Shown: positions 11,142 through 64,000, numbered from the stretch's first letter. The stretch: 64,000 bases of DNA from an uncultured Gemmatimonadaceae bacterium (GCA_963781585.1 CAWAGQ010000006.1:416001-480000); one strand, 5' to 3'. Notes: generated by a model from the sequence alone, not told the origin. Program-made: numbers and translations.

Positions 11142-11146
11142 CGATC

Positions 11147-18476: not shown

Positions 18477-18486
18477 AGGAGGATTC

Positions 18487-33100: not shown

Positions 33101-33141
33101 AGTCTCGGTTCATCTTCTTGAGGCCTAAACGAACTCTCCCC

Positions 33142-39251: not shown

Positions 39252-39337
39252 GCCTAACGCCCTGGGTTCGGCGGCGGCCGGATGAAATAGCAACGCCGCC
39301 GCAGGCCGCGCAAGCGCCGCCGGCCGATCCGCCTAAC
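39252..39337 (-). mobile_element. Partial attC-like site between two GTTAGGC cores
   Basis: Minus-strand GTTAGGC at 39331-39337 (contains the ankyrin stop) and at 39252-39258, with a GC-rich imperfect hairpin between them. Confidence 0.5.
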
Positions 39338-40628: not shown

Positions 40629-40644
40629 ACGAATCTCCTTTCAT

Positions 40645-44404: not shown

Positions 44405-46171
44405 CTACTCGGGCGGCGCAATGTCGTCCAGTTGGTCGAATCGCAGGTTGCTCACGCCCTCACCCCGACCGGCTTGCTTCGATCGGCCAAGCCAGAGATA
44501 GGTCTGCCCCGATGTCCAGCGCGCGCGCTGCCAGGCTCGCTCCACGATCACGCCGGCGCGCGGCACCTCCTCCTCGTTGATGAAGAACGGCGGCGGCACC
44601 TCGGTGAGGAGACGGCCGCGCGCGCCGGGTGCTCCCGGCATTCGCGCGCGCTGCAACTGGATCTCCGACGTGCTTCCCGCGAGATGGACGGGCAGAAACG
44701 GGATCCAGTTGCTCGGCACCGTGGTGCCGGCGACGTACCGGATTGCCGCCGTGCCCGCGGGAACAAACGGCGGCGGTGGCGGCGTGCCGATGTCGAGCTC
44801 GTCGCCGCGCACACCGGCGCCGGCGGCCGATGGCACGACCTTCTCCACCGCCCACACCATCTTCGCCGCCTCGTCGCGCAGGAAATTGACCTTTTCGATC
44901 GGGTCGCTCTCCAGCATCTGGGCGATCGAGGAGGCCAGATAGAACCTGCTCGACGCCGATGCGGCGCCGCCGCGATCGGTATTCTGGAACATCGCCCATC
45001 GGTGCCAGGTGGTGCCTTCGCTCCGGCCGGCCGGCCGGATCAGCGTCTCCACGCCGAACACGTCGGTTACCACGATGCCCTCTACGCTGCACAGGGTATT
45101 GAACGGCATTGGAAATGGAAGCATGAACCAGTCGTTCGAGTAGATCAGCCCGAACTCCGCGAAGACCAGGTGCAGGAGTCCCGTCGGTGACACGCCGATC
45201 GCGCCGAAGTCCGTCTGGTTCTCCTCCATCTGCCAGAAGCGCGGATTGGGCATGCCCTTGAAGCTGAGTGGCGCCGGAATGAACGACGACAGAACCTCGG
45301 CGTCGGGCGGGGCGGTCGGCGTCGTTTCCCCGTCCGCGATCATCGCCTGGCGCGAGTCCAGATCGAACGAGTACCAGTCGATGTGGCCCTGATAGTACTC
45401 GTCGGCCAGAAGGACGCTCTGCTGCCCGGCCGGCGTCGCGAGGCTGAATCCGTACTCGAGCTGCCGCGTCTTCCAGGCATTCTCGGCCGGCAATGACGGC
45501 TGGCTGTAGGTCCGCGCGAACCACGCGAGCAGGGGCGCCGCGAGGTCATCCAGGGCTGTCTTGTCCGCGCCTGCGATCGTGCCCTCGGCATCGAGCCACT
45601 CGCGAAAACGCGTGAGCGCGGGATTCACGCCCGGCGTGGTCATGTCGCGGTACATCGCGTAGCCGTTCCACCACCGCGTTCTGGCCGCGCCGTAGAGCTG
45701 CGTTCCGCTGTAGTCGTTAGGCTCGGGAGCGAAAACGAGCGGATACTGCGCGATCAGCGCGTCCCGGTGCGCGGAGACGAGCGCGGCACCGAGTTTCCAG
45801 TACGACCGCGCGAGTTCGACGGCGAGCCCGAGGTCGCCGATGAGCATTTCGCGCTCGACGCGCGTCTCGATCGGGATCGTGTCGTCGTAACTCTGGACCG
45901 GCCCGGATCCGATCAACGCGCGGTCGACGTGCTGCTGCACGCTCAGGATTCGCGCGCCGATCGGCGTCGCGGCGTCCTCGCCCTGAAACTCGCCCATCTG
46001 CCACTGCCGCGTGAGCAGCCACATCGGGTCGCGCACCTCGGCGCGCAGGCTCCGGGTGAAGTCGGTGCTGCGCGGACTGGCCTCGAGCCGGTTGAACGCG
46101 GTCACCGTCGGGAGGCGGAACTCCGCCTCGTAGACGCTTTCGAGTGTGGCGATGGGAATGGCTGCGGTCAT
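44405..46171 (-). CDS. Uncharacterised 588-aa protein (last gene of the giant operon)
   Basis: Protein-like composition with Trp-rich blocks (DPMWLLTRQWQMGEFQGED, GMPNPRFWQME, YSNDWF); no signal peptide; 7 nt from the upstream gene. Confidence 0.88.
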   Translation of the reverse strand: MTAAIPIATLESVYEAEFRLPTVTAFNRLEASPRSTDFTRSLRAEVRDPMWLLTRQWQMGEFQGEDAATPIGARILSVQQHVDRALIGSGPVQSYDDTIPIETRVEREMLIGDLGLAVELARSYWKLGAALVSAHRDALIAQYPLVFAPEPNDYSGTQLYGAARTRWWNGYAMYRDMTTPGVNPALTRFREWLDAEGTIAGADKTALDDLAAPLLAWFARTYSQPSLPAENAWKTRQLEYGFSLATPAGQQSVLLADEYYQGHIDWYSFDLDSRQAMIADGETTPTAPPDAEVLSSFIPAPLSFKGMPNPRFWQMEENQTDFGAIGVSPTGLLHLVFAEFGLIYSNDWFMLPFPMPFNTLCSVEGIVVTDVFGVETLIRPAGRSEGTTWHRWAMFQNTDRGGAASASSRFYLASSIAQMLESDPIEKVNFLRDEAAKMVWAVEKVVPSAAGAGVRGDELDIGTPPPPPFVPAGTAAIRYVAGTTVPSNWIPFLPVHLAGSTSEIQLQRARMPGAPGARGRLLTEVPPPFFINEEEVPRAGVIVERAWQRARWTSGQTYLWLGRSKQAGRGEGVSNLRFDQLDDIAPPE

Positions 46172-46178
46172 CGCGACC

Positions 46179-49100
46179 TCAGGTCAGGTTCGGATTGACG
46201 TAAAACGTCGTCAGCAGGGGCATCGCCGAGAGGTTGAGCCGATAATCCAGCGAGACGTTGAGCGCGAACTGCTGGAACTCCGCTATCACCGCCGGCAGAA
46301 GAACACCGAGCTCCGGGTTGGCCGCCCGCTGGTCGAGCAGCAGCGGCTCCACGGCGCGCATCTTCGCCCGGCGGAGGGTGTCGTTGAGGATTCCGACCAG
46401 CGCGTCCCAGCTCCAATGACCGGTCATTTCCGGAGGCACGGCGAGCAACAGCGCCTGCGGCGGCATGGCGTTCGGCCGATTGTAGTTGAAGGCCACACCG
46501 GTGCTCTGGTCCCGGGCCGGAATAGTCTCCGTCCACGAATCCACGAGAACACCGCTGCGCAGGGAACCGGCGGTGTACGCTGCGTCGCCGTGGGTGACGA
46601 TCGACAGGGTATCGCTGGCGATGTCGTACGGCTCGCCGGTGGCGGGATCGGTGTCGGGAAGCCCAACGGCGAGCCAACTGTCCCGGGGGCGATAGGGAAG
46701 CTGCACCGCGCTCAGGTCGAGCGACGACGCGAACAGCGTTTCACGCAACAGGCGGATGCGTTCCCAGGCCGCGATCCTGGGGCGCACGTATGCGACGCCG
46801 CGAATCCACTCGTCTTCAGGTGTCGGCATCGCGAGCGTGTTCACGGCGTGATCGACGAGCTGCCCGTGATCGGCGTGCGATTGCATCAGCTCGCTCTCGT
46901 TGTCCAACGCGAATGCCGGGATCACCGGGAACGCGTCGCCGAGGATGGCTTTGCACGCGTCGCTCGCCAGGCCGACCGCCTTCTCGTTCGCGTCCGTGGC
47001 GGCGATGTCGGCGTCGGTGAGCGCCTTGTCGCTCGCCGCCCGGCGGGTGGCTGCTGCGTTCGCGGCGTCGATCGCCTGCGACACGAGCGCCAGCTTCGAG
47101 CCGTCGCGGGTGACGTCCTGGGTGCGCGGAAACGCATCGGCAAGGCCAAAGGCGGCCAGGTGAATCAACTGCTCCTGCAGCAGCAGCATGTCGCTCGACG
47201 CGAACGTGAACGCGAGATCGGTGACGTCGGCGTCCTGCGCGCGAATCTCGTCGAACGCCTGGCCGAGCGTCGTGACATTCACGGCGCCGATCGAGGCGGT
47301 GAACGGCAGCCCGCGGATCGTCGAGAGCACGCCGTCGATCTGCGTCTGCAGCGCGGCGGCCCGCGCGCGCAGCTCGGCAAACACGGATCCGGAGTCCGGC
47401 GTTCCCCCCTGCGTGGTGGAGGTGTGGTAGTCGCGCGCGTCGAGCGGACGGGAGTCGTGGAGCACTCGCTGCAGCGCGAGCATCAGCGGCATCACCTCGG
47501 CCATGCTCAGCCTGGATGGATCGCCGGTGGGCGCGCCGAAGTCGATCTGCACGCGCGCGGTCTCGTCGAGTCCGTGGTCGGCGCGATAGCGCCAGGCGAC
47601 GCGCGTCTCGATCTCCGAGGCTCCGGTGCGCCCGCCGTCGCCCGTGGCGGCGTCGGTCCCGAGGATCGAGATCAGGTCGATGGGCTGGAGTGCGAGGTCG
47701 GCGGCCGACATCGTCGCCGGGTTCACGAGTGTTTCGTCGTCCTGCCGCTCGGACACCTGCATGACGAAGTGATTCGGGGCGCCGAGGACGGCTCCGAGCC
47801 ACTGATTCACTCCCGGCTCGAGCGAGGCGCGTGGCGTCATCGGCACTGGCCACGCCGCGGCCGCGGGATCGCCGGGATCGAGCCGCGTGAAATGAACCGC
47901 GACGCGCTGCGTGAACGTGAACCGGCTGCTGCGCGGCGTCCTGACGACGTCGAGCTGCGGGGGCACCTGCGCGTCCTTGATCGAGCCGAGCACCGCGCCC
48001 GCGCGATCGAAGTTGGACTGCACCATCTGATACGCGCTTTCGGCCAGCAGGAGATCGTTGACGGCATCGAGGGTGTCGGCGATGCGGTCGCGCTCCGCGT
48101 TGAGCGCGGCCAGACGGGGCGCGGTCAGGACGGTTGCGTCGGCGCCGGTAATCGCCGCCCAGTTCGGCGACGCGGTCGCGGCGAGCGTCAGGCCGTTGAC
48201 GACGTCGTAGGTGTCGACCGTTTCCTGCGCCCCGCCGGCGTCTCCGCCCGCGATGCGCATTCGCCGAATCGGAAACGCGACCCGGATGTCGAAGAGCAGG
48301 CCGTTCAGCACCTGGAGCGACGCGTCGGCCGAGGCGCGGTCGTGGATGCCGCGCTCGAACTGATAGCCAAGCAGCGCTTCCACTGCCTGGCCGTTGCGCA
48401 TCCCCTCGAGAATGAACATCGCCCGGCGGACCCGCTCCGAGGTGAGGTTCACCGCCATGACGTCGGGGTTGGTGTCGGTCGCGTGGCTCATGTACCCGGC
48501 GCGCAGCACGGCGGCGGCGGTCGCGTGATTGATCGACGGCGCGTGGACGAACCCGCCGTTGTCGGTGTATTCGCGCAGCGGCGTGCCCCTGGGTGAACGG
48601 AGCTTGTCGGGGACGTCCTGCACTGCGGCGAACGAAGCCGACGGTCGCACGTTCTCCACCCAGCCGAACCCGCCAAGATAGGATCCGGGATTTCTGGTGG
48701 CGCCGCGCGCGGGGGGAACGCCGCGCAGCGTCTCGAGCCTGCCCTTGAAGAGCGCCGTCTGCCACGCGTCGAGCCGGTAGGTGCACGCATCCACATGCTC
48801 GGTGAAGCATCGCTCCAGGCGTGCGGTCGACCGACTGGCGAGCGAGTCGATGGATTCCCGCATCTGATCGAGGAACGCCGTCTCGCTGAGTGAAACGGTC
48901 GGCAGCAGGAGGTAGTCGGCGACGCGGAACGACTTGTACGGGCTGGCTGGGTCGATTGCGCCCACGGGGGCGCGCAGCACTTCCCATCGCGTGAGATCTC
49001 CGCCGGGTCGCACGTTGTGGAACGTGCTGGCGAGGGTCGTTGCCTTCGCGTCGACGCCCCGGCCCTTCATCCACAGGACCGCGCTCTTGTGGAGCTGCAG

Positions 49101-51758
49101 AATGAGGGCGTGTCGCGCCTGGAGATAGAGCAGCGCCGTCGGCACCGGCGCGCCGCCGAAGTTCTGGGCCGACAGCGCATCGACCGACGTCGCGTCGCGC
49201 AGCCAGTGGAGATAGTTCTGGTGCGCAACGGTGTCGTACTCGCGGATCGGGTCCGTCTCGGACAACGGGACGCCGTCGATGAGATTGGCCGCGTCGAGCG
49301 ACGTCGTGAAATTCTGGAAGACGAGCTTGGTGAGCTCGAACAGGTTGCCCGTCAGGCCGGGGGCGGCCGGCAACCCTGCCCAGCTTCGCAGGAGATTGGT
49401 GACGTTGACGCCGCGGAGCCCCGCGGCGATGACCCGGTCGGATTCGGCGCCGCCGGCCTCGAAGTTCACGAGGTTGGCGAGATACTCCAGCGTGTAGGCA
49501 ATCCGCTGCGCGAAGGTGACAGACCCGGGCTGGAGCCCGAGCACGTTGAGGAGCATGTCATCGGCGGCCAGACCCGGCTTGCCGGCGAACGCGAGCTGCG
49601 GAATGATGGCAGTCCAGATCGCGTCGAAGTACTGAAGGAGCTTGTAGAGCATCGGTCGAAACGGATCGGACTTCGCGGAGACGGCGGTCTCCTTCCACCT
49701 CACGAAATCGCTCGTCAGGAGGATACCGTACGGCTGATCGCCGATGCGGATGGCCGAGAGCGGCCCGCGACCGGTGACGTTGGCGACGAAGAAGTCGCGG
49801 AGCCGATCGCGTCCCGATTCGCTCACCAGCGGGTCCAACAGGGTGTCGAAGTAGTAGCCGAGCGTCGCGGGATAGAGCGCGGCGTTCATCGCCACCGCGT
49901 CGCTGTAGTCCGTGTTGTCACTGTTGAAGACGAACTGCAGTGTCTCGTAGGAGACACCGAGCCCGTCGGCGAGCAGCCTGCCGTCGGTGGTTGAGGCGGG
50001 GGTAAAGAGCGGGACGTCGAGGCCGGTGACCTCCTGCGTGTGCGTGAGCAGGTCGTTGACGGAGTACCCCGATCCGTCGCCGTCGGTGTTGTTGGTGGCG
50101 GTGCCCTGGGCCAGAAGCGACAGGCCCTTTGGCGAATGCTGATGGTTCGACAGCAGTGTCTCGAGCGCCTCGCCGCCCGACGCCGCGGAGCGCGACGCCA
50201 TCACCCCGAGCACAAGGATCCTGTCGAAGCCGGATTGGAGCTGCGCCGGGGTGATGGGGATGCGAAAGCCCATTCCCAGGCTCACGGCGCGGTCGAAGTT
50301 GGACGCCCAGTCGTAGTTCGGGCCAAACGTGAGTTGGCCATCGACCGTGACGAACGAATCCTCGTTGTCCGCCTGGTCGGCGTCCGCGGCGAGGTCGAGC
50401 GGCTCGGGTCCGAGCATCAGCTCGTCCGGGATCACGTTGCCCACGACCTCCTTCACGATCGTGCCGCCGGTGTACAGGATCGCCACGAACCGGTCGGGGA
50501 GCACGTTGGAGCGCGGCGCGCGCGACCATGAGCTGGTGCTGGTGAGGTCGTGCGGCGGAAAGGTGAGATCGTCGGTAGTGGCCAGGGTGCTGAGCGCGGA
50601 CCAGTTGGTCGGCCGCGTTTGTCTCGCCACCCACGCCGAGCGCGATGGGCCGAAGAGCGCGGCGAAGTTCTTCCACGTTTCGGTCTTGCGGGAGCCCTTG
50701 CCGCTGTCGGTGTCCTTTTCGATGCCGAAGATCGATCGCCAGTACTCTTCGCCGGCGGCGACCTCCCGGTCGGTGAGCTCGTTCTCGTGCGTATGAACGG
50801 CGATGTCATCGGGATAGACGCGAAGCCACAGCTCGGGCGACGGCACCGGCGCAACCGCTCCCACGGCGAGAGCGCCTGCCGGTGCAACGCCCGGCGGGCC
50901 CGCCGCCGGACTTCCGGCTGGAATTCCACCCGGAGGCGGCGGCTGGCTGACGAACCGCGTCTCGATGCGTACCGGCAGGAGGAGGAACGGGGTCGTGTCC
51001 GGCATCTGCGCGACGGCCGACCGGGGATGTGGGTCGACGTAGATACCGGTGATCGTGTCGTGCAGCGCCCCGGTGGTCGCCTTCCACGACCCCTTGGTCT
51101 TGGCATACTGCGCGTTCAGCGCCGCGAGCCGTTCCCGAATCTGGTCCGGCGTGGGTCCGGCCGCGCCCTTGAGGGCGCCGATCTCCGCCTGGTTGTCGTC
51201 GATCGCCTGACGCGTGTCACTCGTTTGCGCGACGATCTTCTGCAGCGCCTTGCGCGCTGCGGCCGCCGCTTGCTCGATTGCGGCCTGATTGTCGGTGGCG
51301 GCCGCCAGCGACCCCGTCGTATCGGCGATCTGTGCGCGCGTGGACTCGATCGAGGCCTCGAGGGAATCCGCCAGCGTGCGGTCCTTGGGCCGGGCGGTTT
51401 GCGCGAGCGCGATGCGACTCTCGAGCTGGTCGAGCGCTGCGCGAAGCGCGGTGAGCGACTGCTGCAGGAACGTGATGCGTTGCCTGCCGGCGTCCACGCT
51501 GCCGATCGCGGCGCGCGCCGACTGCTCGGCGGCCGACAGCGAGCGCAGGGTGGACTCCAGCTGCGCGATCTCGGCGCGTCGAGCCGTAACTTCGGCGGGG
51601 TCGGGCGGGCCGAGCTTGCCGCCGGCCTGCTGACTCTTGCGGAGCGCGGCGGTGTCACGCGAGATCTGCGTCCGCAACGCGTACATGCGCTGCCCGAGAT
51701 CATCGCGCTGCGCGCGGAGTCGGTCGATTACCGGCAGGTGGTCGTCGAGGGTAGCCAT
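46179..51758 (-). CDS. Uncharacterised 1859-aa protein with N-terminal coiled coil
   Basis: About 240-aa heptad-rich N-terminus, then LLPVRIETRF, RVYPDDI, YRLDAW, LGYQFER and PPQALLLAVPP blocks. Confidence 0.9.
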   Translation of the reverse strand: MATLDDHLPVIDRLRAQRDDLGQRMYALRTQISRDTAALRKSQQAGGKLGPPDPAEVTARRAEIAQLESTLRSLSAAEQSARAAIGSVDAGRQRITFLQQSLTALRAALDQLESRIALAQTARPKDRTLADSLEASIESTRAQIADTTGSLAAATDNQAAIEQAAAAARKALQKIVAQTSDTRQAIDDNQAEIGALKGAAGPTPDQIRERLAALNAQYAKTKGSWKATTGALHDTITGIYVDPHPRSAVAQMPDTTPFLLLPVRIETRFVSQPPPPGGIPAGSPAAGPPGVAPAGALAVGAVAPVPSPELWLRVYPDDIAVHTHENELTDREVAAGEEYWRSIFGIEKDTDSGKGSRKTETWKNFAALFGPSRSAWVARQTRPTNWSALSTLATTDDLTFPPHDLTSTSSWSRAPRSNVLPDRFVAILYTGGTIVKEVVGNVIPDELMLGPEPLDLAADADQADNEDSFVTVDGQLTFGPNYDWASNFDRAVSLGMGFRIPITPAQLQSGFDRILVLGVMASRSAASGGEALETLLSNHQHSPKGLSLLAQGTATNNTDGDGSGYSVNDLLTHTQEVTGLDVPLFTPASTTDGRLLADGLGVSYETLQFVFNSDNTDYSDAVAMNAALYPATLGYYFDTLLDPLVSESGRDRLRDFFVANVTGRGPLSAIRIGDQPYGILLTSDFVRWKETAVSAKSDPFRPMLYKLLQYFDAIWTAIIPQLAFAGKPGLAADDMLLNVLGLQPGSVTFAQRIAYTLEYLANLVNFEAGGAESDRVIAAGLRGVNVTNLLRSWAGLPAAPGLTGNLFELTKLVFQNFTTSLDAANLIDGVPLSETDPIREYDTVAHQNYLHWLRDATSVDALSAQNFGGAPVPTALLYLQARHALILQLHKSAVLWMKGRGVDAKATTLASTFHNVRPGGDLTRWEVLRAPVGAIDPASPYKSFRVADYLLLPTVSLSETAFLDQMRESIDSLASRSTARLERCFTEHVDACTYRLDAWQTALFKGRLETLRGVPPARGATRNPGSYLGGFGWVENVRPSASFAAVQDVPDKLRSPRGTPLREYTDNGGFVHAPSINHATAAAVLRAGYMSHATDTNPDVMAVNLTSERVRRAMFILEGMRNGQAVEALLGYQFERGIHDRASADASLQVLNGLLFDIRVAFPIRRMRIAGGDAGGAQETVDTYDVVNGLTLAATASPNWAAITGADATVLTAPRLAALNAERDRIADTLDAVNDLLLAESAYQMVQSNFDRAGAVLGSIKDAQVPPQLDVVRTPRSSRFTFTQRVAVHFTRLDPGDPAAAAWPVPMTPRASLEPGVNQWLGAVLGAPNHFVMQVSERQDDETLVNPATMSAADLALQPIDLISILGTDAATGDGGRTGASEIETRVAWRYRADHGLDETARVQIDFGAPTGDPSRLSMAEVMPLMLALQRVLHDSRPLDARDYHTSTTQGGTPDSGSVFAELRARAAALQTQIDGVLSTIRGLPFTASIGAVNVTTLGQAFDEIRAQDADVTDLAFTFASSDMLLLQEQLIHLAAFGLADAFPRTQDVTRDGSKLALVSQAIDAANAAATRRAASDKALTDADIAATDANEKAVGLASDACKAILGDAFPVIPAFALDNESELMQSHADHGQLVDHAVNTLAMPTPEDEWIRGVAYVRPRIAAWERIRLLRETLFASSLDLSAVQLPYRPRDSWLAVGLPDTDPATGEPYDIASDTLSIVTHGDAAYTAGSLRSGVLVDSWTETIPARDQSTGVAFNYNRPNAMPPQALLLAVPPEMTGHWSWDALVGILNDTLRRAKMRAVEPLLLDQRAANPELGVLLPAVIAEFQQFALNVSLDYRLNLSAMPLLTTFYVNPNLT

Positions 51759-51764
51759 GGCCGG

Positions 51765-54881: not shown

Positions 54882-57800
54882 ACGGTGCTGACCTCGAGCG
54901 TGGAAACGACCTGCACCTTCCCCCTGAGCTCCGGCCGGGACGCGATCAGCGATTCGTAGTGCTGCTGTGCTTCGGCGTACGATCCGGCCACCATGCCCGC
55001 CGCAAAGGGCGTGAGCGTGCTGACGGTTGCCACCATGTACTGCTCGGCATCGACGTCGACACCGGCCGGCGCGAGCACCGACTGCCGTGAGTTCCGGTGG
55101 GACAGGGGCGAGTTCGCCGCGGCGGCGTTCTGCCGGGCAAGACCGAACCGCGTCTTGCCGAGCGGCCGGCGGCCGGCGAACACCGGCTGCTTCGCCCGCA
55201 GGTACGAGATCTCATAATCCACGTCCCGGCTTACCGGCGGAGTCGTGGCGAGATTGGCCGTCCCGGTGAGCTGGATGCCGCTGTCCAGCATCTCGAACGA
55301 CGGCCGGCTGAGCTTCTCGCTGTCGCTCATCTCGGTGAACTGCGCGACTGCGAAGCGATCCTGCACCGGCGTCGTATCCAGCGATGTCGGTCCGCTGTGT
55401 ACGCCGGTGAGCGTGAATCGGGTGTCGTCCTGCGGAACCTGCTCCCCGATCTTGTCGATGGTGTAGTCGAGGGGCACCGCCGACTCGCTGAACGCCAGTG
55501 TGCCGAACGGGTGGATGATGACCGCGCTGCCGGCGTTCTTGATCTGCTTGACGGTGACGTGGAGGTGGTTGTTGTCGGGAATCGTCGCACGCCAGTTGCG
55601 GTCGTCGTCGAGCTGCGCGATCAGCAGCGCCCTCACGTCGACCTTTTCCCTGGGCAGCTGGTCGGGATCGTCGCCCCACGTCTCGTGGAAGCGGATGGTG
55701 ACGTCGAAGAAGAGGATCGAGAAGCTGGCCTTGCCCTGCACGTCCCACGGCGTCGGACCAGCCAGTTGGCCGTGGAGACGGAGACTCATGATGTTCGTGG
55801 AGCCCCGCCGCAGCGCCAGCCCCGCGTCCAGATCCGCGATGAACCGGAACGGCGTGAACTGGAAGAGCACGTCGAACCCGATGAATCCGTAGAGGCTGAA
55901 TCCGCACGCCGCAGCGTAGAGCTCCGCTCGCGCGCCGAACTGCACCGTGTTCGACGTCACCGCGAAGTAGCAGGCAATGGTGAGACGCGGGTTGTCGCCG
56001 CTCAACAGCGCGAGCGTGAGCCGCGTCATGTTCTGGAGATCCGGGGGCGCGTCCTTGAATGCCGGATGGAAGCCCCCCACGCTCAGCACGAACATCGGCG
56101 TGTCGCCCCAATTGATGCGGAGCGCCATGTCGCCGGTGAGCGTGAAGATGAGCAGCTTCGAATCGAACAGGCTCGCGTCGAACGAGATGTACTTGTTCCC
56201 GAAGTCGACGACGCCCAGGAAGTTCACCTGAATGAGCAGGATCGGCTCGTCGGGATCGGGGAGCGCCGCCCGCAGCACCCCCAGGATCGCGAACATCGGG
56301 TTCGGAATGTCGAGCAGGAGTCCAAGCTCCAGCGTCAGAATGGACCCCGCCCATCCGATCTCGGCCATCGGCCCGAGCAGGAAGTGTCCCTCGGCGATCG
56401 GGAAGATCTGTTTGAGATCGCTGACGATGCGGGTGATGTTGGCGACGACGTCTTGCGGGAAGAGCACACTGTTGAGCGCCCCCGTCTTCACGCCGGCGCG
56501 CAACACGTCGATCCGCACCGTCCGGCTGAGCCCGAGCAGCCCGCCAACGCCGTTCAGCGAGAAGCCGAATCCCAGCTGGATCGGCGTGAACTCGGCGGTG
56601 ATGATGATGAGGAGCGAGAACCCGTTGCTCCCGTCGGGCATCTTCGTGTCGATCAATCCCACGGCCTTGAGCGAGAACAGATCCTGGAACTCCAGCTCCA
56701 GCGCGCCGATGTACTCGCCCTTGTCGGTGTCGATGTAGAGGAAGCCCGCGCCCTTGATTCCGCCGGCGTCGATCGAGAGTCCGACCCCGTTCGGCGGCTT
56801 GAAGTCGAAGTCGAGCTGCGTGGAGCCGCCGATGTTTCCGCTGTTGTCGCTCGGGAAGCTGAACCGCGCCGTGAGACCCATGTTCTGCACCACGGCGGTG
56901 AGCGGACCGAGCGCCGCCTTGATATCGGCGCCGAGCGAAATGGGCAGTTCGGTGACACCGGCGGCGTTCTGGCCGATCTTGAGCGTGAGGGTCAGGCCCT
57001 CGATCGAAACGGGACCGAGCTCGATGTGGACGGGCAGCTGAATCTCGAGCGCGCTGCTGCCCTGGAAGTAGAATCCGCGCGTGCTCGACACACCCATGAG
57101 GATTCCGAAATCGGCCTCGATCTTCGTGCCGGGAAGGATCCTGGCGAGGAATCCGTCGCCTTTCGTCGCGTCGATGACGATGCTGCCGCCGGTGATCTCT
57201 CCTTCGAGTGTGAGTTGGCTGGTCGCGTTGGTGCCGTTCCACGTGAGGTCCACGCCCGCCTCGAGGCGCAGCGACGCCATCTCGACGCGCCCGGCGCCGG
57301 CCTGGCCGAGCAGGATGATCGTGCTCTGGCCCGGCGGCGGATTGGCGATCCAGCGGCCGAAGATCTTGCCCTGGATCGTACCGGCGGCCGGCGGAATGAT
57401 CGTCACGTCCAGTGCCGGCGACAGCGCGACGCCCGCCTCCAACGGCACCTGCGCGTTGACGCCGAACACGGCGCTCCACTGTTCGCGCGTCACTGTGTAC
57501 GAGCCGCCGACGGTGAACAGGTACTTGAGCAGGAGCTGGAGGCCCGGTGGCACCATGTCGGTCCTGGCCGACAGCTCGAAGAACAGTACGTCGAGCGTGT
57601 GCGGCGTGACGCCGGTGTCGAGCACCACCGGCATGCCGAGCGCCAGCATCACCTTGTTGAGCTTGTCCAGCAGCGCGGCGCCGTCGAAGTCGTCGTTCCC
57701 CCAGCCATACAGCGCGCGCAGCTGCTCGAGCGGATTGCTGAACGTCTTCGTCAGCCCGTCGACATGGAACGCCTTCCGGATGTACGGCGGATTGACGGGA

Positions 57801-58309
57801 TTCGTGGAGCCGACGTTCTGCGGGCTGCGCTCGATGACGCCGAACAATTCCAGCACCGCCGCCGCCGCGGGCGCCACACTCTCGACGTAGTTGACCAACA
57901 GGTAGTTGATCAGGTTCACGCTGAGATTGGCGACGAAGTCGCCGATGTCGATCGCGGGGAAGCTGCCGTGCGCGGTATCGATCGCGTGCGCGATGGCGTC
58001 GATGTCCCCGATCAGCTCGACGATCTGCTGGGTGAGATCGATCGCGGTGCCGATCGCGGCGCCCTCGTCGTCGGCGTCGATCTGCTGGATGAGCGTCTCG
58101 ATCAGCCCCGGAACCGCCTCGAGCCGGGAGATCGCGTCGGTCAGCGCCGTCTGGAACTGCGGATTGCTGGCGAGCGATTCCGGGAACTGGATGCCGAGCT
58201 CGGCGAACAGCTCCAGAATCTGGCCGCTGCCGATACGCTCCTCGAGTGGCTTGATGACCTTCGCCAGCTCGAGCGCGATGACTTCCAGTGTCCCGGTCTG
58301 ATTGTTCAC
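54878..58309 (-). CDS. DUF6603-like large beta-strand-rich protein
   Basis: Helical N-terminus, then long runs of amphipathic beta strands with QLGFGFSLNGVGGLLGL, SVGGFHP, VQFGA and GPTPW (recalled as DUF6603-type; not searched). Confidence 0.8.
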   Translation of the reverse strand: MNNQTGTLEVIALELAKVIKPLEERIGSGQILELFAELGIQFPESLASNPQFQTALTDAISRLEAVPGLIETLIQQIDADDEGAAIGTAIDLTQQIVELIGDIDAIAHAIDTAHGSFPAIDIGDFVANLSVNLINYLLVNYVESVAPAAAAVLELFGVIERSPQNVGSTNPVNPPYIRKAFHVDGLTKTFSNPLEQLRALYGWGNDDFDGAALLDKLNKVMLALGMPVVLDTGVTPHTLDVLFFELSARTDMVPPGLQLLLKYLFTVGGSYTVTREQWSAVFGVNAQVPLEAGVALSPALDVTIIPPAAGTIQGKIFGRWIANPPPGQSTIILLGQAGAGRVEMASLRLEAGVDLTWNGTNATSQLTLEGEITGGSIVIDATKGDGFLARILPGTKIEADFGILMGVSSTRGFYFQGSSALEIQLPVHIELGPVSIEGLTLTLKIGQNAAGVTELPISLGADIKAALGPLTAVVQNMGLTARFSFPSDNSGNIGGSTQLDFDFKPPNGVGLSIDAGGIKGAGFLYIDTDKGEYIGALELEFQDLFSLKAVGLIDTKMPDGSNGFSLLIIITAEFTPIQLGFGFSLNGVGGLLGLSRTVRIDVLRAGVKTGALNSVLFPQDVVANITRIVSDLKQIFPIAEGHFLLGPMAEIGWAGSILTLELGLLLDIPNPMFAILGVLRAALPDPDEPILLIQVNFLGVVDFGNKYISFDASLFDSKLLIFTLTGDMALRINWGDTPMFVLSVGGFHPAFKDAPPDLQNMTRLTLALLSGDNPRLTIACYFAVTSNTVQFGARAELYAAACGFSLYGFIGFDVLFQFTPFRFIADLDAGLALRRGSTNIMSLRLHGQLAGPTPWDVQGKASFSILFFDVTIRFHETWGDDPDQLPREKVDVRALLIAQLDDDRNWRATIPDNNHLHVTVKQIKNAGSAVIIHPFGTLAFSESAVPLDYTIDKIGEQVPQDDTRFTLTGVHSGPTSLDTTPVQDRFAVAQFTEMSDSEKLSRPSFEMLDSGIQLTGTANLATTPPVSRDVDYEISYLRAKQPVFAGRRPLGKTRFGLARQNAAAANSPLSHRNSRQSVLAPAGVDVDAEQYMVATVSTLTPFAAGMVAGSYAEAQQHYESLIASRPELRGKVQVVSTLEVSTV

Positions 58310-58319
58310 GCGTCACCCA

Positions 58320-59756
58320 TCAAACGGTCTGTACTGATTCGTGCACCCGCGCGTCCGGGCCGGCGTCTCCCGCGGCCGCCCGCTCCAGCATCTCCTCCAC
58401 CGACGTGATCCCGCTCACGAGATGGAGAAGCGGTACGGTGTTCGCTGCGACCGCGGCCGCGAGCGCCGCGCTCCCCTGCTCCTGCAGCACCACCGACATT
58501 CGCAGTACGACATTCGCCGGCGACACGTCCGCGATCTCCGGCGGAATGCGATGTCCGGGCTCGCGCGCGCTCTTGATGAAGTGCCCGGTGAACGCGGGCC
58601 CCTGGTACCGATGCCAGGCGACCTTCACCTGGCGATTGTCATTGAGCAGCCGGTTGATCTCATCACCGTGTTCGCGGAACATCGCGAGCGCCGCGCGCCC
58701 GACCTCCAGGGTGTCCAGCACTCTCACGATGTCGTCGAGGTGGTCGGGACCGGGCGCCTGAAGCGGCTCGGCGACCGAAGCGCTGCCGAGCGGGATGGTT
58801 CCCGGGGTGCCGGAATTGATGATCGTGATCCCCATCGCCGCCGTGACGTCGGTGATGATGTTCGCAAAGCTGTCATTGGTATTCGTGTTGACGCCCCAGC
58901 ACAGCCCGACCACCACGTTCTGGTCGTTGACCAGCGCCGAGCCGGAGTCGCCGAACCACTGGAAATGGTCGAAGCCGGCATCGGGAGCGATGTGGATCTG
59001 GTTCGCGCGGGCCGGAATCTGCTTGGCCGGATTTCCGGCGGTCGGCCCCTTCGGGTCGGTAACCGTGCCGGTCGTGAGGCCGGTGGTGCGCCCGCGCTTC
59101 ATCACGTGGTCGCCCGGCGCCACGGTCGACCCGCCGGCGTTCAGCGTCGCCGCGCCGAGAATCAGACCGATGTCGATGATCTCGTTCATGAACCCCGGTG
59201 CGCCGGTGATGCGCGCGATGGCGCAGTCGACCAGTCCGTTGTTGAGCGAGTTCACGACCACGCCCACGATGTTACCCTTGCAGCAGCAGCAACACGAGAT
59301 CGTCGACTGTCCGATCTTCTCGCCGTTCGACGCGCCGCCCGCCATCATCACGTGGTGGTTGCTCAACATGACGATCGAGCCGTCGCTGTCGAGCCGGGCG
59401 ATGCATCCCATCGTGCCGACCTCGCTCGACGAGTCGTTACCGATCTGGATGCCGCCGAGGAGGGGGCGGTACCTGCCATCGTCGTCGGCGAGCGTCGGTA
59501 CGGGCTCCACGAGCACGTCGGTCTTCACGCCAAGGACCTCGACGGGAATCACTTTCTTCCGCGGCAGTTCGTTCGCCGGGAGTTTCTTCTCCACATAGAC
59601 GCGGAAGACGATTTGCTCGGTCGGTTTGCCCGCGGTCTCCTTGAGCCCGACCGAGACGTGGCGCACGCCGGGATATGCCATCAACTGCTCGCGCGCCTTC
59701 GGCAGCAGCGCCGAAAGCCGGGTGAACTCGGCTACCCGTTCGTGTCGCGGTCTCAT
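58320..59756 (-). CDS. Trypsin-like (Nal1-type) serine protease with CCCCC motif and helical C-terminal domain
   Basis: Triad SNHHV / DCAIA / GDSGS, KRGRTTGLT, N-terminal YPGV..V.VG...RVYV.KK domain; ATGA start at 59756. Confidence 0.88.
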   Translation of the reverse strand: MRPRHERVAEFTRLSALLPKAREQLMAYPGVRHVSVGLKETAGKPTEQIVFRVYVEKKLPANELPRKKVIPVEVLGVKTDVLVEPVPTLADDDGRYRPLLGGIQIGNDSSSEVGTMGCIARLDSDGSIVMLSNHHVMMAGGASNGEKIGQSTISCCCCCKGNIVGVVVNSLNNGLVDCAIARITGAPGFMNEIIDIGLILGAATLNAGGSTVAPGDHVMKRGRTTGLTTGTVTDPKGPTAGNPAKQIPARANQIHIAPDAGFDHFQWFGDSGSALVNDQNVVVGLCWGVNTNTNDSFANIITDVTAAMGITIINSGTPGTIPLGSASVAEPLQAPGPDHLDDIVRVLDTLEVGRAALAMFREHGDEINRLLNDNRQVKVAWHRYQGPAFTGHFIKSAREPGHRIPPEIADVSPANVVLRMSVVLQEQGSAALAAAVAANTVPLLHLVSGITSVEEMLERAAAGDAGPDARVHESVQTV

Positions 59757-60163
59757 CGTGCACCCCCCGCCAGGGTTCCGGCACGAATCCGCGCGAACAG
59801 GTCGGAGAGACTGGCACACTCGCTGGCCGCTGCCAGCACCGGGGACGCGTACCGCCCTACCGTAGCCGCCAGCTCGCGGCTTCCGCTCTGCTGCAGCGCG
59901 TCGGCCATGCGGAGCAACAGCCGCTCGAGCGACACCCCGTCGAACTCCTTGCGTACCGGCGTGTGCTCGTCGAATCCGCTGTCCATCGCCGAGGTGAGGA
60001 ACTGCGGACCATGGTTGCGCTGCCACGCCACCATCACCCCGCGGTTGTTGTTCACCAGGCGATTCACCTCGTCCACGTGCGACATGATCACGCCCAGGAT
60101 CTCGCGTCCCGGCGGCGACGCGTTCAGCTCCTCCTCGAAGTACTCGAGTTTGCGCATCGTCAT
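59753..60163 (-). CDS. 136-aa protein paralogous to the C-terminal domain of the adjacent protease
   Basis: ATGA overlaps at both ends; HVDEVNRLVNNNRGVMVAWQRNHGPQF vs HGDEINRLLNDNRQVKVAWHRYQGPAF. Confidence 0.85.
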   Translation of the reverse strand: MTMRKLEYFEEELNASPPGREILGVIMSHVDEVNRLVNNNRGVMVAWQRNHGPQFLTSAMDSGFDEHTPVRKEFDGVSLERLLLRMADALQQSGSRELAATVGRYASPVLAAASECASLSDLFARIRAGTLAGGAR

Positions 60164-60834
60164 ACCGGTTGTGGTGCGGTATCGGAGTACAGCCAGATGC
60201 CGGTGGTCGCGTCGACCACGTGGCGCATGTGGTTGCGCGCGTCGGGGTGAATGTTGGCCATCGCCGCGTAGCCTTCGGCGGCCATCTCGATACCGCGCGT
60301 CTGAATGATCCAGACGTTGCGCGGGCTGTAGTGCCGGGTGTGGTGGGTGACGAGGTAGGCGATGATCTGCTTCGCCGACTTCGGCGGCACCGGTCCGGTC
60401 AGCTCGAGCTGCTTGAGCGCATTGTAGAAGTCGACGTCGGGCTCGGCGTCGGGCAGACCGACGAACCGTTCGCCGAGGTTGCGAAGCTGCCGCTCCTCCT
60501 CCGGTGCGCTGGGGAAAGGCGCGATCGGCCGCGCGCCCGCCGCCCACGGCGAGGTGATCTTGTAGACGATCGCCGTCCGTGGATTCACCACCGTGTCCAC
60601 GCTCTTGATGTTCGGGAAGCGCGGCCGCCCGCCTCGGGCCGTGATTTCGTCGAGCCGGTCGAGGTGCAGACGCGGGTGCGTCTCGTCCTTGCGCCAGTGG
60701 CGTTCATCCTCGGCCGACGTCCTGAGGAAGGGAACGAATGTGCGCTCGACCGTCGCCGGCGGCGCGGTGATGGCCTCCGGCTTCACCTCGAAGCCCAGGG
60801 TGCGCGTCGCGCGCTCGATGGCAGGGTTGGTCAT
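60160..60834 (-). CDS. Hypothetical protein with PepSY-like C-terminus
   Basis: In-operon ORF with a VWII...VVDATTG.WL tail. Confidence 0.7.
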   Translation of the reverse strand: MTNPAIERATRTLGFEVKPEAITAPPATVERTFVPFLRTSAEDERHWRKDETHPRLHLDRLDEITARGGRPRFPNIKSVDTVVNPRTAIVYKITSPWAAGARPIAPFPSAPEEERQLRNLGERFVGLPDAEPDVDFYNALKQLELTGPVPPKSAKQIIAYLVTHHTRHYSPRNVWIIQTRGIEMAAEGYAAMANIHPDARNHMRHVVDATTGIWLYSDTAPQPV

Positions 60835-60844
60835 GGTCGATCGG

Positions 60845-62809
60845 CTACGGATTCACGTCCCAGATGTCGAGCGCATCGGCGCCGACGAAGTCACAGCCGT
60901 GCTCGGCCGCGTCCGTCACCGAGCAGTTCGCAGCCACCAGCCCGGCGCCCACGTATCCGCCGGCGATCAGTCCCGACGACGAGCTGCTCGAGAACGCCGT
61001 GCCCGTCTTGTACTGGCAGTGCGAGATGTGGCACTTGGAGCCGGCGGTCCCCGGCATCTGCGAGCCAAGGTCGTAGACCTCGGCGGTAAAGTCGACGCGA
61101 TCGCCCGACTCGGCGATCCACCCCGCGTTCGTGAAGTTGTCCTTCGCGACACTGCCCACGAAGAAATCCCAGCGTCCGGTCGCCGGATCCACCACGCATT
61201 CGTACTCCTGCGTCGTCCCGACTACGGGGAACCCGGGGTCGTTGTGGATGGTGTTGTGGTAGTCCGCGGGATTCGGTCCCGCCTGGACTTCGTACTTGAG
61301 ATACTGGACGACCGCCGCCGCGCCGCTGCTGCGCCGCCGCGTGATGCCGATCTGCCCCCACTTCGTGATATCGCCCTTGGTCACCCCCGTCCACACTGTG
61401 GTGAACGCCTCGTAGGTTGCCGTGCCCTCGCAGGGCAGATTCATCGGGAAGGTGTCGATCGTCGCCTTGCAGCCGAGCAGCCGGGGGACGTGCTTGCTCG
61501 CCCCGGCGTACCAGCGCGGCCCGCCGGCGATACGCGGCGCGCACGACGAGCTGCTCGAGCGGCTTGATGATGATCGGACCGACGAGCTCGACGACGCACT
61601 GGATGAGGAACTGCTTGACGAAGACGAGCTGACGGACGACGACGAGCTGCTCGGCGATGCACTGCTGGACGACGAGGCGACCGCCGACCCCGCGGCGCTG
61701 CTCGACGAACTCCCGGGAAGTTCCGCCGCGGCGCTCGAGCTGCTGCCGCAGTTGCTCGACGGAATGCCGAGCCCGGTGCCTGCGTCGCCTGCGATCCTGA
61801 TGCCCATCGCCGCGAGCACGGTCCCGATGTGATTGGCGACGCCACGGTTCCGTGTGCCGCGGTCGGCGCCCCACAGCAGGCCGACGACCTTGCCGTCGCT
61901 GTTGACGATCACCGATCCCGAGTCCCCGAAGTAGGCAAACCTGGGGAACCCGGGCAGGGGATTGATCAGGATCTGACTTCCCTCATACAGCACGTCGACC
62001 ACGGTGCCGCGCGTGAGCCGCGTGGCCGACCCGCGCTTGCGCACCTCTGAGAAACAGACGGCCTGCGCCACCCCGGTCAGCGCTCCGATGTCCACCACCT
62101 GGTTCAGGGTACCACCCGCCGTCACGCCGCTCACCGCGTCGCCGTCGAGCTGCACGATCGCACAATCGACCTGCGTCGTCTTCTGCGAGCGCAGCACCGC
62201 GCCGATCTCGTTGAAGGTGCAGCAACAGCAGCAGGTGATATGTCGCGGCTGCCCCACCTTCACGCCGTTGCAGGCAAAGCTCGTCGGCGCGCCCGACGCC
62301 GCGGACCCACTCGATGCCGAACCGGCGCCGACGTTGAACTCCGTGCCGGCGCACGCGATGTGCTGGCTCGTCAGCGCCACCATCGTCCCGTCGGTCGTCT
62401 GCGCGAGACAGCCGATCGTCCCCATGCCGCGGGTATTGTCGCCCTCGAACTTCGCCGTGCGGAGCTGCGATCCCCCCTGGAGCGGCCGGTACTTGGTGGT
62501 GTCGCGATTCGGCGCGAACGCGACCAGCGAGCTCGAGGACATCGCCTCGAGGGCGGGTGCGACGATCACGTCCGTGCGTACGCCGAACACGTCGGCCGGC
62601 ACGCGATACGAAACAGGAAGAACCGCGGCGTCGAGCTTCTCGGCGACGTACACGCGATACGCCAGCTCGGGCACCAGCTCGCCCCGGATTTCGCGCGCAC
62701 CCACACCGACACTCAGTACGCCGGGATAGCGCGACAGGATCGCCGACGCCTCGTCGTATCGGTCGACCAGCTGCTGCTGCCGGTTGAGGACCTCGCGATC
62801 GATCGGCAT
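60845..62809 (-). CDS. Trypsin-like protease (CCCCC motif) + poly-Ser linker + glutamic-peptidase-like (G1/neprosin fold) domain
   Basis: Triad TSQHI / DCAIV / GDSGS; Ser-rich linker; C-terminal VWTGV...WGQIG...FTAEV...QMPG. Confidence 0.85.
   Translation of the reverse strand: MPIDREVLNRQQQLVDRYDEASAILSRYPGVLSVGVGAREIRGELVPELAYRVYVAEKLDAAVLPVSYRVPADVFGVRTDVIVAPALEAMSSSSLVAFAPNRDTTKYRPLQGGSQLRTAKFEGDNTRGMGTIGCLAQTTDGTMVALTSQHIACAGTEFNVGAGSASSGSAASGAPTSFACNGVKVGQPRHITCCCCCTFNEIGAVLRSQKTTQVDCAIVQLDGDAVSGVTAGGTLNQVVDIGALTGVAQAVCFSEVRKRGSATRLTRGTVVDVLYEGSQILINPLPGFPRFAYFGDSGSVIVNSDGKVVGLLWGADRGTRNRGVANHIGTVLAAMGIRIAGDAGTGLGIPSSNCGSSSSAAAELPGSSSSSAAGSAVASSSSSASPSSSSSSVSSSSSSSSSSSASSSSSVRSSSSRSSSSSCAPRIAGGPRWYAGASKHVPRLLGCKATIDTFPMNLPCEGTATYEAFTTVWTGVTKGDITKWGQIGITRRRSSGAAAVVQYLKYEVQAGPNPADYHNTIHNDPGFPVVGTTQEYECVVDPATGRWDFFVGSVAKDNFTNAGWIAESGDRVDFTAEVYDLGSQMPGTAGSKCHISHCQYKTGTAFSSSSSSGLIAGGYVGAGLVAANCSVTDAAEHGCDFVGADALDIWDVNP
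61541..61760 (-). repeat. Low-complexity poly-serine coding tract
   Basis: About 70 aa dominated by Ser, encoded by mixed TCG/AGC/TCC/TCA codons. Confidence 0.9.
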
Positions 62810-62812
62810 CGC

Positions 62813-64000
62813 TCAGGCCGTTGTCCCGATAACGATCCGCCGTCGGCTGTACGAACGCATGTTCGTCTCGATCAGCGCGTCGCGACAGGTGTACCCGACG
62901 GCCTCCACGCTTCGCATCACCGCGTCGAGGATCTCGCCGTTGTGGTAGTCGGCTGCCGTCTCGAACAGGCACACGCGCGGCCGGTAGTGCCGCACGAGGA
63001 ATCGCATGTTCGGTTCGGCGAGCTGCGCGTCCCATGAGCAGTAGCCGTGGCTCAGCCCGAGGGCTACCAGCACGTCGGCGTGCTCGGGGAGATTCGCGTG
63101 GGCGAGGTGCTTCTCCTCGATTTGCTCCCACCGCCGCCCGGGATACTCGGCGCGCAGCCGGGCGATGATCGCCGGATCGATGTCGAAACCGAAGACGCGG
63201 TCGTGGCGATAGTACTCGTTGAGCGGCGAAAAGCCGCAGTAGGCCTCGAAGATCCGGTCGTCCGGCCGCAGCAGCGGACCCAGATGGTCCATGATCATGC
63301 TGCCGCGGTCGGATGGCGCGGTGAGGTAGCTCCACTTGTCCTCGACGCGCGGCGGGCGCGCGACCGCGACCAGGCTCAGCCCCGCGTCGAGGTGGAGCGT
63401 CGTCACTTCGATGCCGCGCGTACGGAGCGACTGCATCGTCCACGACACACCGCAGTTCGGATTCGTAGAGTCGTGAAACAGCACGACGCCGTCCGACATC
63501 AACGTCGAGTAATTGTCGAAGTCGCGCAGACTCTGCTGGTGCGTGTGCGCGCCGTCGATGACCACCAGCCCGACATACCGGCCTTGCGTCATGTCGCGCA
63601 CCGCGTCCAGCGCGTCGTCGGAGCGCATTTTGAAATGCCGAATCCACGGCGCAAGGCCAAAGAGACCGAACCACTTCTCGACTTCCGTGGAGTGCTCCCA
63701 GTGACCGCGCCCGTCCCAGGCCGGATCACCGCTGCCGGCATACGACGGATCGATGAAGATCACCTGTCCGTGCCCGTTGTCCTGCAGCCCACGAGCGACG
63801 CAGAGCGGCGAGAATCCGCGGGCCGAGCCGATGACCACGGCGAAATCGGGGCGGAGGTTGCGCGCCATACTATAGTAGAGCCAGCCGAACCCGAGATCGC
63901 CGCTGCCGGTGTTCTGCGACAGGGGCTCGGCGTACGCCACCGCCTTTTCGATGAACTCGTTCAGGGACAACGCGGCGCGTGTTGAGGCGCTGTGCTTCCC
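62813..64000 (-). CDS. Protein with two class I SAM-methyltransferase-like domains; frame open to the window edge (possible TTG start at 63970)
   Basis: IGSARGFS, IDGAH and VLFHD (Methyltransf_24-like), then EAYCG...GFDID; no in-frame stop between 63970 and 64000. Confidence 0.8.
   Translation of the reverse strand, partial: GKHSASTRAALSLNEFIEKAVAYAEPLSQNTGSGDLGFGWLYYSMARNLRPDFAVVIGSARGFSPLCVARGLQDNGHGQVIFIDPSYAGSGDPAWDGRGHWEHSTEVEKWFGLFGLAPWIRHFKMRSDDALDAVRDMTQGRYVGLVVIDGAHTHQQSLRDFDNYSTLMSDGVVLFHDSTNPNCGVSWTMQSLRTRGIEVTTLHLDAGLSLVAVARPPRVEDKWSYLTAPSDRGSMIMDHLGPLLRPDDRIFEAYCGFSPLNEYYRHDRVFGFDIDPAIIARLRAEYPGRRWEQIEEKHLAHANLPEHADVLVALGLSHGYCSWDAQLAEPNMRFLVRHYRPRVCLFETAADYHNGEILDAVMRSVEAVGYTCRDALIETNMRSYSRRRIVIGTTA

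Follow-up and report, generated by a model that had tools for sequence, protein, structure and literature searches.

In a 64,000-nucleotide (nt) stretch of DNA from an uncultured Gemmatimonadaceae bacterium (GCA_963781585.1 CAWAGQ010000006.1:416001-480000; the window below means this whole stretch) we find a tightly coupled minus-strand operon that ends in four genes for large proteins, here called A, B, C and D, which recur in the same order in many phyla. From the sequences compared, the slot just upstream of A is an interchangeable hydrolase: related loci hold proteases of different folds, PhoD-like phosphatases or PLD enzymes at this place, and the N-terminal third of A changes together with the enzyme. 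The reading that we prefer, tentatively and with a probability of about 0.4, is that enzyme and core form a putative Sec-independent, membrane-active complex that would carry a swappable hydrolase to or across a membrane, with the logic of toxin complexes and polymorphic effectors and with parts unrelated to theirs.

The operon lies at 44405-64000 and consists of nine consecutive open reading frames (ORFs). Their positions, sizes and tight coupling are all as described in a first-pass annotation made from the window's sequence alone, with junctions, in transcription order, of 3, 10, -4, -4, 10, -4, 6 and 7 nt. The features that matter for the argument, together with the accessory genes of the same block, are as follows, with sizes in amino acids (aa):

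62813-64000, minus strand: methyltransferase ORF, open at the window end (Methyltransf_24 at 7.7e-17 in Pfam)
60845-62809, minus strand: second S1 protease paralogue, 654 aa (phrog_20754 at 2.9e-27)
60160-60834, minus strand: protein of 224 aa with no family (ORF)
59753-60163, minus strand: stand-alone copy of the protease C-terminal domain (CTD), 136 aa, with an ATGA overlap on each side (CTD hidden Markov model, HMM, at 1.3e-39)
58320-59756, minus strand: slot enzyme, an S1 (trypsin-fold, Nal1-like) serine protease with CTD, 478 aa (phrog_20754 at 1e-34)
58323-58754, minus strand: CTD of the 478-aa protease, ~117 aa (iterated HMM)
54878-58309, minus strand: core gene A, DUF6603 protein of 1143 aa with a GTG start (PF20248)
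56960-58309, minus strand: variable N-terminal module of A, residues 1 to ~450 (identity comparison across loci)
51765-54881, minus strand: core gene B, 1038 aa (ORF and homologues)
53079-53216, minus strand: hydrophobic helical hairpin of B, residues ~556-601 (hydropathy and AlphaFold)
46179-51758, minus strand: core gene C, 1859 aa (ORF and homologues)
44405-46171, minus strand: core gene D, 588 aa (ORF and homologues)

No sigma-70-like promoter was found inside the nine-gene block, and its 11 terminator-like sites are no excess over the 8.3 ± 3.1 seen in shuffles. The window has a G+C content of ~67%, and, in support of real genes, third-position G+C is 0.85-0.90 in seven of the frames and 0.76 in the stop-to-stop frame that covers the protease and 136-aa genes. 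By inspection, a charged n-region followed by a hydrophobic core is absent at all eight complete N-termini, which bears out the earlier statement that none of these proteins has a recognisable signal peptide.

To find related loci, contigs representing one genome per species, from 185,579 species genomes, were searched with aligned DUF6603 proteins as the query. This yielded at least 598 pattern matches, at least 551 of them confirmed relatives, from which 77 distinct loci were analysed, mostly with flanks of 10 kb per side. When the window proteins are used as tblastn queries, A is found in all 77 loci, B in 74, C in 66 and D in 57. B lies directly downstream of A in 70 of the 72 loci with room for it (1 kb or more); of the two exceptions, one (L022, 10001-16699) has A and B merged in a single 2232-aa ORF. 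C lies downstream of B in 62 of the 65 loci where 4.5 kb or more is available, the misses being one fusion and two permuted loci, and D follows C in 52 of the 54 loci with a complete C, the remaining two having a broken C and D further on. In the permuted loci (L016 and L066) the order is C-D, then the enzyme, then A, with B after A in L016; no B gene was found in the 4.6 kb 3′ of A in L066. The median intergenic gaps for A-B, B-C and C-D in the related loci are 2, 9 and 5 nt, and the homologues of the four large proteins share 30-77% identity across phyla. A conserved four-gene order with variable upstream cargo, the pattern that the first-pass annotation had named as the one to look for among homologues, is thus what the related loci present.

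The loci come from more than ten bacterial phyla, including Gemmatimonadota, Acidobacteriota, Bacteroidota, Ignavibacteriota, Chloroflexota, Actinomycetota, Verrucomicrobiota, Pseudomonadota, Myxococcota and others, and the cassette is also present in Haloferacaceae, Streptomyces, Nocardia and Anaerolineae. The carriers belong mostly to soil and sediment lineages, the closest DUF6603 homologues of A are from Gemmatimonadaceae, and in a tree of B the phyla are intermixed. Several copies are on plasmids: a Gemmatirosa kalamazoonensis KBS708 plasmid holds a complete cassette with three S1 paralogues, in Streptomyces europaeiscabiei the plasmid-borne cassette sits between tyrosine recombinases, and a plasmid of the haloarchaeon Salinigranum marinum (L078, 10309-29945) carries a gene for a PhoD-like enzyme followed by A, B, C and D. 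A tblastn search of 50,697 phage records with A gave no match. Judged from gene order and phylogeny, A-D is a conserved core that moves between genomes as a unit, and with the slot enzyme it makes up a modular system of five parts.

The slot itself was surveyed in the 65 loci that have at least 2.5 kb upstream of A, using crude ORF calling, with the following outcome:

S1 protease with CTD: 13 of 65 loci
S8 subtilase with the same CTD: 10 of 65 loci
M64-like metalloprotease: 10 of 65 loci
PhoD-like phosphatase: 5 of 65 loci
PLD enzyme: 3 of 65 loci
unknown family c8: 1 of 65 loci
something else ('other'): 13 of 65 loci
no gene called on the strand of A: 10 of 65 loci

The catalytic motifs of these enzymes are intact, with HExxH in 11 of 11, two HKD motifs in 3 of 3 and GDSG in 37 of 38. 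Inspection of the N-termini of the recognised S1, S8, M64-like, PhoD-like and PLD slot enzymes found none that starts with a signal peptide; a neighbour in the 'other' group (L034) does begin with one. The PhoD-like gene of the haloarchaeal plasmid occupies the same slot, and in L060 the slot holds a galactose-oxidase-like protein. Mapped on the tree of B (59 rows), enzyme class needs at least 14 changes, compared with a mean of 18.9 in shuffles, none of which (0 of 200) is as low. Exchange can also be seen between close relatives: the sister loci L011 and L030, 0.1-0.18 apart on the B tree, have an S8 and a PLD enzyme, respectively. The genes further upstream of the slot are unrelated housekeeping or mobile-element genes. 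The first-pass annotation had regarded the window's proteases as a dedicated module of the operon, a description that fails for the family, since elsewhere the same slot holds M64, PhoD-like or PLD enzymes.

Enzyme class co-varies with the N-terminal part of A. Among 53 complete A proteins we compared pairs whose cores (residues 380-1000) are 55-70% identical. For residues 1-155 the mean identity is 30% when the two loci have the same enzyme class (n=142) and 20% when the classes differ (n=56); for residues 156-379 the corresponding values are 32% (n=142) and 20% (n=56), and at the C-terminus of A they are 41% (n=142) and 40% (n=56). Sliding windows across pairs of A place the break near residues 400-500. 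Specifically, A of L011 and A of L030 are 11-37% identical before residue ~450 and 56-92% identical after ~500 (74-92% through most of the core), and the window's A compared with that of L002 gives the same breakpoint pattern. From this break in identity it follows that the exchanged unit is the enzyme gene together with the 5′ third of A, i.e., its first ~400-450 codons. The exchangeable part falls outside the Pfam DUF6603 domain.

Protein A, which the first-pass annotation had called DUF6603-like, is a true match to PF20248 (447.4 bits against a cutoff of 27; 8e-134; residues 427-997, covering the full profile), and 1793 homologues were found among 8000 scored candidates. In its AlphaFold model (predicted local distance difference test, pLDDT, 80.9; predicted template modelling score, pTM, 0.55) residues 7-155 form a helical bundle, which is followed by a mixed region and by ~40 long strands running up and down between 228 and 878, in keeping with the beta-strand-rich protein predicted earlier. 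The strands are amphipathic, one face having a mean hydropathy of 2.6 and the opposite face -0.8. Foldseek's top matches are giant beta-barrels (Deinococcus SlpA/SDBC 8agd, LptD, the FimD/PapC ushers, porins and SprA), at probabilities of 0.54-0.98, template modelling scores (TM-scores) of 0.09-0.28 and identities of 6-11%. The modelled fold is a giant beta-meander, perhaps barrel-like, without membership of any of these families. We rejected A as an outer-membrane barrel of the LptD, usher or SlpA type: it has no signal peptide, its N-terminus (MNNQTGTLEVIALELAKVIK) lacking by inspection a hydrophobic core after a charged start, and the family is present in archaea. Haloarchaea are not known to have an outer membrane. 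Two variations of A were also seen, one in L071-L073 and L076 (Algoriphagus, Limnohabitans), where A is ~2205 aa long with a 1060-aa N-terminal extension of no family, and the other in L049 and L054, which have two DUF6603 paralogues per locus.

B has no family and, going by its model (pLDDT 81.7), no known fold: in the predicted structure the N-terminal part is rich in beta-strands, the C-terminal part is alpha/beta, and a hydrophobic hairpin belongs to a set of long helices; Foldseek finds no match at E<=0.001 in the PDB or in BFVD (viral structures). The hairpin, already noticed in the first-pass annotation, is real, with a hydropathy peak of 3.7 and modelled helices at residues 557-577 and 581-617, and a comparable hydrophobic segment occurs in 42 of 53 B homologues. 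The coiled coil that had been described is likewise there, at the N-terminus of C (residues ~14-230), but it is visible just as SMC/Rad50-type noise in NCBIfam and PADLOC. Of 8000 candidates scored for C, 1321 are homologues, none of them named and none with a meaningful Pfam domain; the haloarchaeal homologue (L078) carries an inserted halo_surf_dom (NF045517). With a profile of D, 5372 representative proteins are recovered at E<=0.001, of which 2219 remain at E<=1e-30. Some D homologues bear added Laminin_G_3, LTD or HHH_3 domains, that of L078 having two lamin-tail (LTD) domains, and the ~400-aa N-terminal extensions of some others match nothing in the loci. Profile-profile comparison shows B, C and D to be mutually unrelated, and no conserved P-loop (Walker A) was found in families A-D. 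The ESM Atlas gave no usable match for D, only clusters of hypothetical proteins for C, and no model of either.

In both proteases of the window the catalytic His, the Asp and a GDSGS motif follow in order, the last at residue 269 of the 478-aa and residue 295 of the 654-aa protein, and both match phrog_20754 ('protease') over the whole profile (1e-34 and 3e-27, respectively), in agreement with the trypsin triads read previously. They remain below the Pfam gathering scores (Nal1_C, 15.9 vs 26.1 bits; Trypsin_2, 18.2 vs 27.6 bits); related proteases in L003 and L020 exceed the Nal1_C cutoff, and NAL1_N matches in L046 and L003 are weak and sub-cutoff. Between the catalytic His and Asp both have the run CCCCC, at residues 155-159 of the 478-aa protein (59290-59304, minus strand) and 193-197 of the 654-aa protein (62231-62245, minus strand); among 38 related proteases this five-Cys run is confined to the window, L001 and L045, with three or four Cys in L023, L039 and L075. 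The 654-aa protein consists of the protease, a Ser-rich linker of ~80 residues (SSSS runs; ~61480-61780) and a C-terminal domain of 215 aa, and is without the CTD. Its C-terminal 251 aa match nothing in Pfam or the PDB, and the 'peptidase' that had been placed after the poly-Ser run is accordingly not borne out. The antisense frame at 61416-61832 is also high in third-position G+C, which we take to be a side effect of composition.

Related loci often have 2-4 S1 paralogues in tandem. In seven of them (L003, L004, L006, L012, L025, L038 and L051) the array upstream of A consists of a short S1 protease without the CTD and then two or three with it. The iterated HMM detects the CTD in 28 of 77 loci, where it is always either the C-terminal end of an S1 or S8 protease or a separate protein; the window's 136-aa protein, whose homology is to the last ~117 residues of the neighbouring 478-aa protease, is such a free copy. 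The CTD-bearing genes mostly end 3 nt within the start of A, an overlap that we list in support as probable translational coupling. In a set of 5.8 billion proteins, 28 longer proteins with the CTD were found, every one a subtilase or S1-like. The CTD has no relative in Pfam or the PDB, and neither phmmer nor the CTD HMM detects it, or any shared docking domain, on the M64, PhoD and PLD enzymes. This ~117-aa domain is a new one shared by two unrelated protease folds, and is predicted to be of docking type.

In the complex that we propose, the N-terminal module of A (helical bundle and first beta subdomain) would hold or control the enzyme, in the protease versions by way of the ~117-aa CTD, and the amphipathic beta-sheet core of A with the hydrophobic hairpin of B would form the membrane-active part. 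C and D may be the outer or target-binding part, because their homologues sometimes bear lectin-like, lamin-tail or haloarchaeal surface domains. In the window the slot is occupied by two S1 serine proteases, accompanied by a free copy of the CTD. A bolder version, which we consider doubtful, is a previously unrecognised Sec-independent export or delivery machine of many phyla and haloarchaea, made of four giant proteins of new fold, in which a barrel-like A would use its exchangeable N-terminal module to hold a folded, interchangeable hydrolase and would pass this enzyme to or through the membrane without an ATPase.

A number of observations weigh against such a complex. The low TM-scores of A (0.09-0.28) may reflect merely long beta-meanders, its amphipathic strands would fit a soluble beta-sandwich or solenoid too, and the hydrophobic segment is absent from 11 of 53 B homologues. 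The slot enzymes are large and folded (470-1000 aa), unlike classic translocated toxins, and the PhoD-like and M64-like enzymes are not classic toxins either. Under the crude ORF calling 23 of 65 loci have no recognised slot enzyme, all five Pedobacter loci among them; these 'none' and 'other' groups include L001 and L045, which by tblastn have the window's own arrangement, and L024, L054 and L069, where an S1 protease lies slightly further away. The loci examined showed neither a lysis cassette nor a secretion ATPase or a gene for release, and no immunity-like gene is conserved beside the enzymes; the loci themselves are a sample of 77 out of at least 551, mostly with 10 kb flanks. The pair counts of the co-variation analysis (n=142 and n=56) overstate the evidence because the pairs are phylogenetically non-independent; despite this, the individual breakpoints are plain. 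Finally, plant NAL1, a named relative of the S1 slot proteases, is reported to be an intracellular cage-forming protease (PMC12012508).

This last point also favours the main rival, an intracellular anti-phage or abortive-infection system in which A-D would be a sensor or scaffold at the inner membrane that on infection frees the swappable effector, whether a protease, a PLD-type nuclease or lipase, or a phosphoesterase, to kill or arrest the cell, since NAL1-type proteases are reported to act inside cells (PMC12012508). We regard this rival as unlikely on the whole. It would account for the absence of signal peptides (by inspection), for the rampant horizontal transfer with its plasmid or recombinase contexts, and for S1 proteases from a family also found in phage genomes (phrog_20754), and a swappable effector before a conserved core is typical of defence systems. 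Yet A-D match no PADLOC model beyond coiled-coil noise, no conserved P-loop, nuclease or other sensor-type domain was found in them, 14 kb is very large for the core of a defence system, and the domains added to C and D homologues (Laminin_G_3, LTD, halo_surf_dom) are of an extracellular kind. A few neighbouring genes are defence-like (a REase_I fragment in L022, PDC-S14 in L027, PDC-S01 in L039), which speaks for the rival. Of 134 upstream-neighbour ORFs in 38 loci PADLOC matches 7, three of them ABC-ATPase look-alikes, and at most 3 of the 38 loci have a real defence-type neighbour, a raw count on one flank, uncorrected for background, that speaks against it.

The same surface-type domains on C and D homologues would suit a cell-surface platform for enzyme display or scavenging, similar to a cellulosome, in which enzymes docked on an envelope-anchored giant scaffold, with the CTD acting like a dockerin, would harvest soil polymers or prey. 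Most carriers are indeed from soil and sediment, a docking-type domain is common to two unrelated protease folds, and the classes seen in the slot (subtilase, trypsin-like, M64, PhoD-like, PLD, and the galactose-oxidase-like protein of L060) are commonly secreted by soil bacteria for nutrients. We nevertheless think it improbable, as inspection reveals no Sec or Tat signal on any of its proteins and an unknown export route would be needed, Pfam scans find no cohesin, dockerin, SLH or sortase-type anchors, the M64, PhoD and PLD versions are without the CTD, and one enzyme per cassette is a poor repertoire for scavenging. The proposal of the first-pass annotation, a structural assembly or nanocompartment whose giant subunits are cut by dedicated proteases to mature, draws on the tight coupling of the genes and on the prevalence of proteases among recognised slot enzymes (serine proteases in 23 of 65 slots, M64 in 10 more). 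PhoD-like enzymes (5 loci and the haloarchaeal plasmid) and PLD enzymes (3 loci) occur in this slot in cassettes closely related to protease-bearing ones, and from this, together with the 14 or more changes of class, we conclude that 'protease-matured' does not describe the family and 'carries a swappable hydrolase' does. Nor do Pfam or NCBIfam scans show an encapsulin, a bacterial microcompartment (BMC) domain or any other family of shell proteins, and giant non-repetitive proteins are unlike known shell proteins. A protease-matured assembly is thus very improbable, and the nanocompartment was rejected, the models of A and B having in addition no HK97-fold or BMC match in Foldseek. A gasdermin-protease system was also considered and rejected: Pfam scans of the cluster and of the upstream proteins of related loci find no gasdermin family.

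Scans of A-D and the other window proteins against Pfam, NCBIfam, PADLOC and PHROGs matched no characterised system; A-D have no match in PHROGs, and PADLOC-DB v2 (5027 models) gives only coiled-coil matches to JetC, LmuB and DruC at the N-terminus of C (E 2e-4 to 7e-3). When A-D, the CTD, the protease and the C-terminal part of the 654-aa protein were compared by sequence with solved structures, none gave a significant match. In the literature searched, which covered few subscription journals, there is no paper naming DUF6603 or PF20248 and none relevant to the cassette or its link with proteases, so the earlier remark that DUF6603 clusters have no assigned function holds for these libraries and this literature.

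The Tc (ABC) toxins of Photorhabdus and Yersinia are similar in having adjacent giant proteins without signal peptides, a large beta-sheet component with a membrane-penetrating one, an enzymatic payload varied by recombination, and a patchy, horizontal distribution. Their payload lies within a cocoon and corresponds to the hypervariable C-terminus of TcC. In the cassette, by contrast, the variable part is a separate upstream gene for a large folded hydrolase plus the N-terminal third of A, B is without a known fold, and archaea are also among the carriers; no Tc family (TcA, VRP1, SpvB, TcdB-mid, RHS) was found in Pfam and NCBIfam scans of the nine proteins, and in the Foldseek search with A, RhsA appears at rank 41 with a probability of 0.05. 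Type VI secretion systems and extracellular contractile injection systems share the principle of a conserved multi-gene apparatus whose neighbouring effector is swapped with its adaptor part, and use PLD and protease effectors. The cassette differs in having no ATPase and no recognised immunity gene, and no sheath, tube, baseplate or spike (VgrG, PAAR) families were found in the cluster (Pfam, PHROG) or in 96 upstream proteins of related loci. Lamassu, CBASS (cyclic oligonucleotide-based antiphage signalling system) and Avs likewise pair one core with different hydrolytic effectors and are mobile and patchy, whereas the cassette is without an NTPase or nucleotide-signalling enzyme and has accessory domains of extracellular type.

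The giant barrels (SlpA/SDBC, LptD, ushers, SprA) are the best Foldseek matches of A, and in SlpA a helical stalk at the N-terminus precedes a very large up-down beta structure, the same succession of a helical part and up-down beta as in A; they differ from A by its lack of a signal peptide, the low TM-scores, and its occurrence also in haloarchaea and Actinomycetota. The S1 proteases of the slot are of the type of NAL1 and the bacterial Nal1-like proteases, with the catalytic Ser motif conserved, but those of the window are sub-cutoff in Pfam and their CTD is shared with subtilases and belongs to no named family. Unlike cellulosomes, the system has no cohesin or dockerin in Pfam scans, and its CTD has no Pfam or PDB match.

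The cassette amounts to ~14 kb of tightly coupled coding sequence, spread from Gemmatimonadota to haloarchaea in at least 551 of 185,579 species genomes, without annotated function or solved relative, and D alone accounts for thousands of sequence clusters. A swappable hydrolase with a matching exchangeable module of A offers a concrete hypothesis for how a machine might be loaded. If delivery or export is true, the cassette would be a new class among the few known protein-translocation machines; if defence is true, it would be a system without a known sensor or NTPase. Either reading would give a role to DUF6603 and three unnamed families. Harmless carriers available in culture include Gemmatirosa kalamazoonensis KBS708, Pedobacter heparinus, Dyadobacter endophyticus, Algoriphagus iocasae and Salinigranum marinum.

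The two remaining genes of the block are lineage-specific accessories, as far as their distribution among the loci indicates. The methyltransferase that the first-pass annotation put at the operon start is supported by the Methyltransf_24 match and recurs in 2 of 77 loci (L001 and L045, the window's two nearest relatives). There, at 2626-5193 and 3097-5583, respectively, a single ORF of 855 or 828 aa combines a Mannosyl_trans3 glycosyltransferase domain with the methyltransferase as its C-terminal half, and for this reason the window's ORF probably extends past the window end and is probably of the same glycosyltransferase-methyltransferase form. The 224-aa gene occurs in 1 of 77 loci (L045). 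Its product matches nothing in Pfam, NCBIfam, PADLOC, the PDB or PHROGs, and with no Pfam or NCBIfam match the 'PepSY-like' label given earlier has to be dropped.

The remaining genes of the window are ordinary and include those for a beta-lactamase-fold protein, a beta-galactosidase, PadR with MacB/FtsX permeases, and a TonB-dependent receptor. The MacB/FtsX-type permease genes are at 10940-13795 and 18120-21123, the PadR regulator preceding the second. At 23493-30483 (minus strand) a TonB-dependent receptor with CarboxypepD_reg adjoins an 889-aa protein with SdrD_B and DUF5689, and within this region the long frames 26765-27985 and 27814-30483 overlap. Two ankyrin-repeat proteins are encoded at 33103-34095 and 39333-40640.

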